Source: Candidatus Uhrbacteria bacterium
Lineage (GTDB): Bacteria > Patescibacteriota > Patescibacteriia > UBA9934 > GWF2-40-263
DNA: 64,000 nucleotides
Assembly: GCA_023246355.1 (NCBI GenBank)
Contig: JAHFIQ010000002.1
Coordinates: 24,333 to 88,332, forward strand
Reading direction: 5' to 3'
The notes below the pieces were generated by a model. The model saw only the letters and a program-made list of their open reading frames with translations. It was not told where the DNA came from and did no database searches. Below are positions 20,398 through 21,464 of this stretch, piece by piece; the stretch's first letter is position 1, and every line of letters starts with the position of its first letter. The translations under genes and the position numbers were made by a program.

Positions 20398-20426
20398 TGA
20401 CAACCAAACGGTTATTTGCTATAGTG
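20398..20426 (+). promoter_or_regulatory. Consensus sigma70 promoter
   Basis: TTGACA, 17 nt, TATAGT, within an AT-rich upstream region. Confidence 0.55.
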
Positions 20427-20433
20427 CCGCTGC

Positions 20434-20728
20434 GAACGTCGAAAGATGGATCGCTCAACAACAGCCCAACGGGTACGGAGGTGCCCATGTTCTAGTCACA
20501 CTCCAAGCTCCCTGACCCCCACGATCGCACCATCGTGAGTGAAAGGAAGATTCCAAGACCAATAACAGAAGATGTTCGACGACAGTGTAATACCCTGTTT
20601 CATCAAGTCGTCGCAGCCGGATCAAGGTGTCGGCTGAAGAGGTCAAAGGATCAACCAACCACTCATGAGGTGCATCATGTGGTAGGTCTCTCGCACCCGG
20701 CGGCGTTCGCGCTGCCGGTCTTATTTTT
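20434..20728 (+). ncRNA. Candidate small RNA (about 290 nt) defined by promoter and intrinsic terminator
   Basis: Transcript from consensus promoter to hairpin cccggcggcgttcgcgctgccgg plus tcttatttttt; no ORF with RBS; the ORF-track 145-aa ORF runs antisense into the TrmB-like gene. Confidence 0.35.
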
Positions 20729-21464
20729 TACAGGAAGCATCCCATGCTGCATGAAACAATGTGCGCATGGTATCGGCAACGGCCTTGCTTTCCAAAATCA
20801 CGACAACGGGTCGCCCAATGAAGGTCATGAGAGATACGAAGTCTGCGTAAATGGAAATGTCGCTATGAAACTCGCCAAATCGTTCTGCCAGTTTGCAATA
20901 TTCAACATCGTCCCGTTTGTGACGAATGTCTCCACGATGAAGAAGTCGAAGTGTTTTTATGCGCTTCCATGAAACAGCCTTGCGGGAGGACTCGATGGTT
21001 TTTGAATCTAAGTGTGCGTAGACATCGTCCAAATTTGAAATTTCAAACATCGTTTCGGGATTGGCTTTTTTTAGTTGATCAAAATAGGCGGGCATGGCTT
21101 CTTCTCCTTCATAGACCTTGACCAGAGGTTTGAGTCCACCGGCCATGAGCTGAAGGGTTCCGACAAGTTGTTCGATGTCGCTGAGCGTTGTTGAAAATTT
21201 TTGCTGCTCACCTTTGAGGTAGGAGACAATCCGACTTGGGTCTTCTGACGTAAACAAGGTTCGTTTCCCACTCGTGCTTGTGGTCATGAGTCCTCGTTTG
21301 CGCAACAGCTCAATAGCCTCATAAGTGGCGGTGCGGGAGATGTCAGCTTTCTTTGCTATGTTTTGAACCGTCGAAGGGCCTAACTCGAGTGTAGAAAGAT
21401 ATACTTTTGTTTCACTCGGAAGGAGTCCGACGTCTGCAAGTAGTTGTTTTATATCCTTTGGCAT
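20721..21464 (-). CDS. TrmB-like HTH transcriptional regulator
   Basis: N-terminal wHTH (LGPSTVQNIAKKADISRTATYEAIELLRKRGL); immediately downstream of the pilB-like ATPase. Confidence 0.6.
   Translation of the reverse strand: MPKDIKQLLADVGLLPSETKVYLSTLELGPSTVQNIAKKADISRTATYEAIELLRKRGLMTTSTSGKRTLFTSEDPSRIVSYLKGEQQKFSTTLSDIEQLVGTLQLMAGGLKPLVKVYEGEEAMPAYFDQLKKANPETMFEISNLDDVYAHLDSKTIESSRKAVSWKRIKTLRLLHRGDIRHKRDDVEYCKLAERFGEFHSDISIYADFVSLMTFIGRPVVVILESKAVADTMRTLFHAAWDASCKK

Follow-up and report, generated by a model that had tools for sequence, protein, structure and literature searches.

Two minimal cistrons in a putative regulatory RNA kept beside a TrmB-like gene of Uhrbacteria

Introduction

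Open reading frames (ORFs) of only a few codons are found in several bacterial and phage RNAs that act by being translated. We here describe a candidate for a further RNA of this kind. It lies at positions 20432-20729 (plus strand) of a 64,000-nucleotide (nt) stretch of Candidatus Uhrbacteria bacterium (contig JAHFIQ010000002.1, positions 24,333 to 88,332, of assembly GCA_023246355.1), which is called the window in the following. The predicted transcript of about 298 nt would carry two ORFs of two codons each, both behind near-ideal ribosome-binding sites. The first module, M1 (20477-20495, +), consists of the Shine-Dalgarno (SD) sequence GGAGG (20477-20481), the 5-nt spacer TGCCC and ATG TTC TAG (20487-20495), i.e., Met-Phe-stop. 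The second one, M2 (20667-20685, +), combines the SD GAGGTG (20667-20672) with the spacer CATC and ATG TGG TAG (20677-20685), i.e., Met-Trp-stop. A first-pass annotation of the region had noticed the RNA but stated that it contained no ORF with a ribosome-binding site. That statement has to be withdrawn; the mini-ORFs had been overlooked because each is only two codons long.

The Candidate Phyla Radiation (CPR), or Patescibacteria, accounts for a large share of bacterial diversity, and the Uhrbacteria are ultra-small bacteria within it. Such cells have been reported to contain only tens of ribosomes. To our knowledge, almost nothing is known on RNA-based regulation in these organisms.

The nearest relatives of the RNA, in concept and not in sequence or context, are the CreT toxins and the two-codon minigenes. 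Derepression of CreT arrests growth, and the arrest is relieved by overexpression of tRNA. CreT combines a strong promoter, an SD and/or an AUG, a mini-ORF of 4-6 codons and a stable hairpin downstream; it is toxic through translation, and its transcription is repressed by CreA-guided Cascade (PMC8501985; bioRxiv 10.64898/2026.06.02.729485). The RNA of the window resembles it in being small and in having a strong promoter and a strong initiation signal (GGAGG-5 nt-AUG and GAGGUG-4 nt-AUG) ahead of an ORF of few codons. A G+C hairpin of 9 bp follows 11 nt past the M2 stop, and M2 together with this terminator has the layout of CreT. Moreover, CreT acts via translation of its mini-ORF, not via the peptide, and is held in check transcriptionally by a neighbouring element, two traits which the window RNA may share. 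The differences, however, are substantial. Neither cas genes nor CRISPR repeats nor a creA-like element lie near the window RNA; a CRISPR-like repeat array was not found in the window, and cas genes were missing both there and from the gene tables of the related loci. CreT contains consecutive rare Arg AGA/Ile AUA codons or Pro-Pro, whereas the window ORFs have one non-rare sense codon each. The window RNA, finally, has two modules in a covarying fold, its family ranges from 300 to 650 nt, and it sits at a conserved syntenic chromosomal site throughout a class, next to a TrmB-like protein. Membership in CreTA thus fails on the features tested: there is no cas or CRISPR context, and there are no rare or Pro-Pro codons.

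Two-codon minigenes are most toxic by peptidyl-tRNA drop-off if they have a strong SD, and they can protect mRNA in cis (PMC8708949). Like M1 and M2, bar of phage lambda, the LEE1 leader of E. coli and mg2 of axe-txe consist of an SD, an AUG, one sense codon and a stop. The known ones, however, are parts of phage transcripts or of mRNA leaders and exert their effect on a cistron further downstream; some of them are toxic only when Pth is deficient. The window RNA has no cistron downstream: past M2 come a terminator and a convergent gene. Here the minigenes would instead form the conserved core of an RNA gene of their own, bounded by a terminator.

A conserved RNA family without a known name

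Homologues of the TrmB-like protein assign the window to the Uhrbacteria, within the CPR. Related loci, numbered L001-L055, came from species representatives (43), from eight proteins of close relatives (nine loci, since one protein occurred on two contigs) and from distant homologues (three, one of them reached through a protein of Magasanikbacteria). In the window, in 50 other Uhrbacteria loci (51 in total) and in the three distant ones, the RNA unit is found 3' of a TrmB-like gene and in convergent orientation to it. With the exception of one truncated contig, all loci have on the opposite strand, just 3' of the TrmB-like gene, a unit that extends from TTGACAA-N17-TAnAnT to a terminator.

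The first-pass annotation had been unable to match the RNA to 6S, SRP, RNase P or tmRNA and had suggested a search of Rfam. This search confirmed the impression. At the gathering thresholds of Rfam 15, the small RNA had no match in the window or in seven related loci; at E ≤ 10, the region 17800-21000 yielded tRNAs and noise only, and nothing within 20400-20730. ARAGORN did not detect a tmRNA either. A blastn comparison with phage genomes and a scan of viral contigs for the M2 motif found nothing, and one metagenome scan with the promoter pattern TTGACAANNNNNNGGTTTTATGRTAGAGT, which was too strict, retrieved only two unrelated loci. By comparison of the loci, the RNA family is new and conserved across the Uhrbacteria.

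The mini-ORFs and their conservation

Within the clade of the window, TGTTCTAG of M1 is invariant in 15 members, with ATG as the start in 10 and GTG in 5 of them. The M2 pattern GAGGTGC..[AG]TGTGGTA[AG] is invariant in 14 members; its stop is TAG or TAA, its start ATG (12) or GTG (2). M2 follows M1 at a distance of about 190 nt in the window; in relatives the gap varies from 144 to 268 nt.

The signal is not confined to this clade. In the 51 units, 98 SD-led ORFs of 2-6 codons were counted, as compared to 6.3 ± 2.3 (maximum 13) in dinucleotide shuffles, and 44 of the 51 have at least two of them, where shuffles give 0.58. Nearly all (90/98) comprise 2-4 codons. ATG starts 86 and GTG 12; the stops are TAG (52), TAA (34) and TGA (12). 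The distance from SD to start is 4-9 nt across the family. Among the loci compared, SD-led mini-ORFs are the hallmark of this RNA family.

The peptides are another matter. MF and MW are typical of the window clade; other clades have MGGGC/MGGS, MGGA/MGGV, MGGVG/MGNG, MNG/MAG, MNA/MGGV, MTG/MTG and others. The sole theme common to the clades is Gly, Asn, Phe or Trp in position 2. In many relatives the mini-ORFs contain consecutive Gly codons, with synonymous codons mixed. Changes in length keep the in-frame stop, as is exemplified by MGGGC, MGGGG and MGGA at one and the same site in L006, L007 and L009. A conserved SD, conserved spacing, a start and a nearby in-frame stop, combined with a free choice of the peptide, are the pattern to be expected if translation itself is selected. 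Such a pattern appears hard to obtain from RNA structure alone.

Could the tiny peptides nevertheless be the product, e.g., as signals or as antibiotic-displacing di- to pentapeptides such as fMet-Phe, fMet-Trp or MGGA? A short peptide that is translated in cis can rid its ribosome of a macrolide, and the pentapeptide minigenes of macrolide resistance would be the model. The translation signals are near-ideal, and the peptide is constant within a clade. Between clades, however, sequence and length vary freely, an export or receptor system for peptides of 2-4 residues is not known here, and the gene tables of the related loci reveal no conserved modifying or export genes near the RNA gene. We give this explanation hardly any credence. 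The dual-function small RNAs (sRNAs) SgrS/SgrT, RNAIII/hld and SR1/SR1P likewise are structured regulatory RNAs with an ORF, yet theirs encode conserved peptides of at least 26 amino acids (aa), while here 2-5 codons specify peptides that are not conserved between clades.

A natural deletion variant is seen in L051 (3744-3993) and L052 (1326-1575), both on the minus strand. This shortened version of 264 nt lacks M2 as well as the central domain but retains the promoter, the 5' hairpins, M1 (ATG TTC TAG), the terminator and the 3' domain.

SDs otherwise appear sparse in the window. Even a weak one is found within 22 nt of the first in-frame start in only 8 of the 33 long ORFs, a figure that is an underestimate, as the starts were called mechanically; the perfect GGAGG and GAGGUG sites of the small RNA stand out against this background. 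One further SD-led mini-ORF occurs in the same genome (29734-29810, −): TTGACT-17-TATCCT is followed by AAGGAGG-5 nt-ATG CAT CCA GTC CAT TAA (MHPVH*). It ends 11 nt ahead of the ATG of a gene for 229 aa (29722-29033) and resembles a coupled upstream ORF.

The fold

The RNA is structured. The minimum free energy (MFE) of 20432-20729 (+) is −108 kcal/mol, with z = −4.14, as compared to −2.67 for the opposite strand; the RNA of L003 reaches z = −5.77. A 5'-terminal hairpin, P1 (20432-20454, +), appears in both the MFE and the centroid structure and has its equivalent in relatives as GCGATCG...GATCGC. Next comes P2 (20471-20486, +), GGGUAC-GGAG-GUGCCC, which would present the core of the M1 SD in its loop and whose 3' arm is the spacer between SD and AUG. 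It forms in 13 of 14 clade members, which had to be folded one by one, since a right-justified alignment and unequal loop lengths made column-wise counting of pairs unusable. Six compensating stems were found: GGGUAC/GUGCCC, GGGAC/GUCCC, GGACC/GGUCC, GGGCA/UGCCC, GGGGC/GCCCC and GGGC/GCCC.

The second feature of interest is a long-range helix, P3. Its 5' strand (20527-20554, +; GCACC AUCGUGAGUG ... GAUUCC in the MFE structure) begins 31 nt past the M1 stop; its 3' strand (20648-20673, +; GGAUC ... CACUCAUGA GGUGC) includes the SD of M2. P3 is a long, interrupted helix built from GCACC/GGUGC, CGUGG/CCACG, CGGU/ACCG and GAUC/GAUC, with CAGU/ACUG, UCGG/CCGA and GGUU/AACC as compensatory variants. 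It closes a central domain (20555-20647, +) of two or three hairpins, which differs between relatives in length and sequence and includes the hairpin cagccgg/cggctg at 20614-20636 that the first-pass annotation had pointed out.

MAFFT plus RNAalifold on 14 full-length clade sequences recovered local helices only, as the indels of the central domain break the alignment. Cognate strands were therefore compared with non-cognate ones. For the window, the cognate duplex has −36.7 kcal/mol, the non-cognate mean being −23.8 (rank 0 of 13). Over the clade the cognate mean is −32.8 versus −26.2 kcal/mol, and 10 of 14 sequences rank between 0 and 2 of 13. Family-wide, the 70 nt past the M1 stop pair with their own M2 region at −33.8 and with those of others at −27.8 kcal/mol (mean rank fraction 0.29, n = 44). 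Relatives add an outer helix between a C-rich tract after M1 and a G-rich tract directly after the M2 stop, e.g., CUGACCG/CGGUCAG, CCCCUGACC/GGUCAGGGG or CCUUCACC/GGUGAGGG; the window RNA has lost it, together with most of the 3' domain. A start-codon hairpin made of the spacer and the end of the mini-ORF is seen in L024, L027, L030, L032, L034, L040 and L042; it is absent from the window clade and was discarded as a family feature.

The 5' strand of P3 has an alternative: it can form a local hairpin, CACGAU/AUCGUG in the window, and therefore a fold that frees M2 is possible. The arrangement is reminiscent of phage MS2, where a distant upstream segment masks the ribosome-binding site of the replicase and translation of the upstream coat gene opens the pairing. 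MS2, however, is a viral mRNA with full-length genes, while a coupling in the window RNA would be deduced from covariation only.

The GGAG of M1 raises the question of whether the RNA is translated at all. It could be an untranslated structural RNA that binds a protein, e.g., a sponge for a CsrA-like protein that reads GGA or GGAG in loops, with AUG and stop as mere by-products. A covarying hairpin indeed carries the GGAG of M1 in its loop, the motif NNAC-GGAG-GUNN is present twice, M2 is able to form CAC-GGAG-GUG, and in many relatives a third such motif, AAGGAGA, follows M1. Also, the clade shows no nucleotide variation in the module core, and the SDs are not predicted to be especially accessible. 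Yet such a sponge leaves unexplained why a start at SD distance is followed by an in-frame stop within 1-5 codons (98 cases versus 6.3 expected), why all three stop codons are used and why indels keep the frame. Only 2-3 sites with GGA in a loop are available. Rfam did not report a match to the Csr/Rsm families, nor does the 64-kb window encode a CsrA-like ORF, which the rest of the genome could still hold. We consider a mere protein-binding RNA rather improbable.

Promoter, ends and terminator

The promoter (20397-20425, +) comprises a −35 element, TTGACA (20397-20402), a 17-nt spacer ending in TGC, which provides an extended −10, and the −10 element TATAGT (20420-20425). The motif TTGACA-17-TATAGT was correctly recognized in the first place, but its coordinates, given as 20398-20426, have to be shifted one base to the left. 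It matches the consensus in 11 of 12 positions and is kept in relatives as TTGACAA-N17-TAgAgT. Upstream lies the AT-rich UP-like region (20330-20396, +) that had also been noted before; the GC content is 0.35 across 20200-20399. It belongs to a bidirectional control region that is conserved, and all related loci share the AT-rich layout. Transcription is predicted to start around 20432; the 5' end of the transcript, GCGAxCG, can be aligned in 14 relatives. With such a promoter the small RNA is probably abundant.

The intrinsic terminator (20697-20729, +) consists of a hairpin of 9 bp, 8 of them G-C (20697-20718; CCGGCGGCG-TTCG-CGCTGCCGG), and of the T tract TCTTATTTTTT, which extends to 20729 and includes the 3' end of the RNA. 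As already proposed, the convergent TrmB-like gene overlaps the T tract with its last codons; its stop (20721-20723) lies inside the tract.

Consensus matches alone do not mean much. The number of such motifs in the vicinity equals the shuffle expectation, 2 versus 2.1 for promoters and 5 versus 5.0 for terminators, and by this measure the promoter and the terminator could be chance. They rise above chance because promoter, body and terminator are conserved in more than 50 related loci, and the folding energy adds to this. The stems P1, P2 and P3 recur in relatives as well, conservation being one of the checks that the first-pass annotation had proposed. The region, as judged by conservation and structure, is a real, stand-alone RNA gene, non-coding in the ordinary sense, just as had been suspected. 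An ORF of 145 aa (20535-20972) that runs through it had rightly been dismissed as spurious: relatives carry non-triplet indels across that stretch. Neither this ORF nor the others of the region have a Pfam match or are conserved.

Promoters with TTGACA and an extended −10 are found twice in the 64-kb window. The other one (12690-12747, −; TTGACAAAACCCTCTTTTTGTGATATATT) precedes the SD AGGAGG and an ORF starting with MSRLAIASLIALVSIAFA. The product of this ORF is probably secreted or located in the membrane, and probably highly expressed.

The closeness of M2 to the terminator invites another interpretation. A ribosome at the M2 stop might weaken the terminator, whereupon transcription would run antisense into trmB (and pilB) as long as translation is active. 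In the window, and likewise in seven or more further lineages, 7-17 nt separate the M2 stop from the terminator; the genes are convergent with overlapping 3' ends, and attenuation by leader peptides (trp, pheA, ermC) is an established mechanism. The leaders trpL, pheL and ermCL, too, place short regulatory ORFs beside alternative helices and a terminator. They differ, however, in having a regulated gene downstream. Here no gene of the same orientation follows, and every locus has its TrmB-like gene on the other strand; there are two ORFs of 2-5 codons per RNA and no runs of sensed codons. The ORF and the terminator are 60-200 nt apart in most lineages, with the 3' domain or two terminators in between. 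As the distance is not conserved but bimodal, attenuation was rejected as a general explanation. It also leaves M1 and the large covarying structure unexplained. An attenuator or a device for transcriptional interference is very unlikely.

The TrmB-like neighbour

The convergent gene (20721-21464, −) encodes a TrmB-like DNA-binding protein of 247 aa (Pfam TrmB, E = 5e-11), the predicted fold of which matches the archaeal DNA-binding proteins TrmBL2/TrmB. It is a candidate regulator. Genes for TsaD, TsaE, a DUF6847-like protein, the TrmB-like protein and PilB make up the neighbourhood in the window. In the Magasanikbacteria-like loci the TrmB-like gene is located behind rpsF-ssb-rpsR and is not linked to pilB, and the RNA is still present. 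It is therefore the TrmB-like gene that is the conserved partner of the RNA, and not the pilus operon. The first-pass annotation had considered an antisense regulator of the 3' end of this operon; the missing linkage and an overlap with the TrmB-like gene of 9 nt speak against the proposal.

In a broader sense, the RNA might still be an ordinary base-pairing sRNA or antisense regulator. A seed or the overlap with the 3' end of trmB would then be the active part, and the mini-ORFs would just bind ribosomes to stabilise the RNA against 5'-to-3' decay. An RNA that is bounded by promoter and terminator, structured and conserved fits this description. The trmB mRNA of the window lacks a separate U-tract terminator past the shared hairpin, and antisense read-in to the RNA gene is possible. 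Relatives contain conserved, seemingly unpaired stretches such as AAGAUCAAGA and AGAGAAAGCAAAAC. Stabilisation by ribosomes also has a precedent (PMC5737220, PMC4113751). In the 5' stabilisers of B. thuringiensis cryIIIA (STAB-SD) and of B. subtilis hbs and ermC, a strong SD, complementary to the 3' end of 16S rRNA and close to the 5' end of a long-lived RNA, binds a ribosome, which blocks decay of the RNase J type. A STAB-SD, however, requires neither a start codon nor an in-frame stop and precedes real genes; in the window RNA start and stop are conserved, and a second module follows 190 nt later. Further, the 9-nt overlap is small, in many relatives a spacer or a bidirectional terminator separates the RNA gene from the TrmB-like gene, and no seed is conserved family-wide. 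A crude duplex scan against 47 start regions of the window ranked those of trmB and pilB 32nd and 37th; it produced unrealistically long interactions and was treated as uninformative. Base pairing as the essential function looks unlikely.

How the RNA might work

We favour the idea, at a probability a little short of even, that this is a regulatory RNA engaging translation: the act of translating two minimal cistrons would matter, not the peptides, and the first ORF would be coupled to the second one. The near-consensus promoter would yield the transcript of some 300 nt. Ribosomes would load at M1, the SD of which is displayed in the loop of P2, and would translate AUG UUC UAG. M2 (SD, AUG UGG UAG) would at first be masked, its SD being one strand of the long-range helix whose partner starts just 3' of M1. 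A ribosome on M1, or the alternative local fold of the partner strand, might then unmask it. On strong-SD ORFs of 2-5 codons ribosomes would cycle in place, which would tie up ribosomes and peptidyl-tRNA; they might also shield the RNA from 5' exonucleases. The output could be a throttle on translational capacity or, equally, a report of it. The TrmB-like protein encoded next door would probably set transcription, acting on the conserved operator region described below; for now such control is best called possible.

The individual steps have parallels. RNAs with an SD, a mini-ORF and a downstream hairpin work through translation (PMC8501985; bioRxiv 10.64898/2026.06.02.729485), re-initiation and depletion of tRNA are on record for two-codon minigenes that have a strong SD (PMC8708949), and RNase J1 is blocked by initiating ribosomes (PMC5737220). 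For the RNA itself, the comparison shows that promoter, SD, start, in-frame stop and terminator are conserved, that P2 and P3 covary and that synteny with the TrmB-like gene is kept; translation of the mini-ORFs, coupling of M1 to M2, physiological output and control by TrmB are inferred.

Several observations weigh against the idea. The nucleotides of the ORFs are invariant within the window clade: TTC is never replaced by TTT, and the M1 stop is always TAG. An additional sequence-specific constraint is therefore possible, and a purely sequence- or structure-specific role would fit as well. The codons are not rare: UUC and UGG, with 15.5 and 12.4 per 1000, are of middle frequency, the rare codons of the window being AGA, AGG and ATA; for this reason, sequestration of tRNA through rare codons was rejected for the window. 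Seven of the 51 units hold only one module by the criteria applied. Long-range pairing between M1 and M2 is clear in only about half of the family, some lineages outside the window clade included. The mean unpaired probability of the SDs is 0.33, the average of the RNA being 0.37, and for the M2 SD of the window it is 0.0. In the model, such low accessibility points to conditional, not constitutive, loading of ribosomes. Finally, if the RNA were toxic at all times, a consensus promoter for it at a conserved chromosomal site would be difficult to explain, except under repression.

A bolder version can be formulated. Uhrbacteria and related bacteria would keep a CRISPR-independent mini-ORF RNA under the command of a TrmB-like factor, with the two minimal cistrons as its sole conserved coding content. 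It would hold in place or throttle the few dozen ribosomes that an ultra-small cell has, or else use up particular tRNAs as peptidyl-tRNA, and its two loading sites would be coupled by a long-range RNA switch. Taken as a whole, this is a doubtful proposition.

The control region and a second putative RNA next door

The control region is shared with a divergent promoter (−35 TTGACA 20292-20287, −10 TATCTT 20269-20264), which together with a palindrome-like motif occupies 20264-20325 (−). Promoter and GCTAAATTTAGC-type motif are kept in nearly all loci. The motif is AT-rich, lies at about 20300-20330 beside the divergent −35 and occurs at the same place in nearly all of L001-L055; TTTGGCTAAAAyTAG, GCTAAATTTAGC and TTGGCTAATTTTAG are examples. 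The adjacent TrmB-like protein may bind this candidate operator.

The divergent promoter leads into a conserved leader of about 200 nt that extends to the start of the DUF6847-like gene at 20058 (20059-20292, −). It contains two large inverted repeats, 20209-20154, which is followed by a U-run on the minus strand and thus is terminator-like, and 20153-20098. The leader could be an attenuator, a riboswitch-like element or a second small RNA. What follows behind it varies from genome to genome: the large RNA discussed below, DUF6847, a small membrane protein or others. In the window it is an ORF for 172 aa (19540-20058, −), coiled-coil-like and similar to DUF6847 (DIP1984-like; E = 8e-4, which is under the Pfam cut-off). 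Homologues with 38-60% identity occur in 6 of the first 43 loci, and the ORF was also called in L046 and L048; some loci that have the large RNA lack it.

The large RNA, a structured candidate of about 1.6 kb (17951-19539, −), has no credible ORF and ends with a terminator-like hairpin (17982-17961) and a T tract. Its core of about 700 nt (18506-19229) is conserved at the nucleotide level in L002, L003, L018, L010, L012, L013, L035 and L025 (nhmmer E down to 1e-190). RNAalifold, run on only 7 sequences, predicted 106 pairs, 62 of which show compensatory double changes. Rfam contained no match, and the motif scan of viral contigs was empty. Apparently this is a separate, undescribed structured RNA, which is present in a subset of the genomes with the mini-ORF RNA. 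In the closest relative, L044 (2476-3627; TrmB-like protein 89% identical), the RNA gene is only about 1.1 kb from tsaE, and neither the large RNA nor the DUF6847 gene is present. The block therefore is an insertion or deletion polymorphism between close relatives.

Implications

The locus offers a concrete, testable object for the RNA biology of the CPR: a strongly promoted RNA that is conserved throughout a class, is absent from Rfam and has two ORFs of 2-5 codons in a covarying fold. If the ORFs are translated, RNAs acting by being translated would extend from curiosities of phages and defence systems to a conserved chromosomal regulator. If the bolder version is true, mini-ORF RNAs that sequester the translation machinery would be a housekeeping device of growth control, beyond the addiction toxins of defence systems. 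ORFs of 2-5 codons are dropped by ORF callers and by human readers alike, and similar elements may be common and overlooked. Together with the large RNA next door, the locus suggests that the intergenic space of these small genomes holds more structured RNA than has been annotated.

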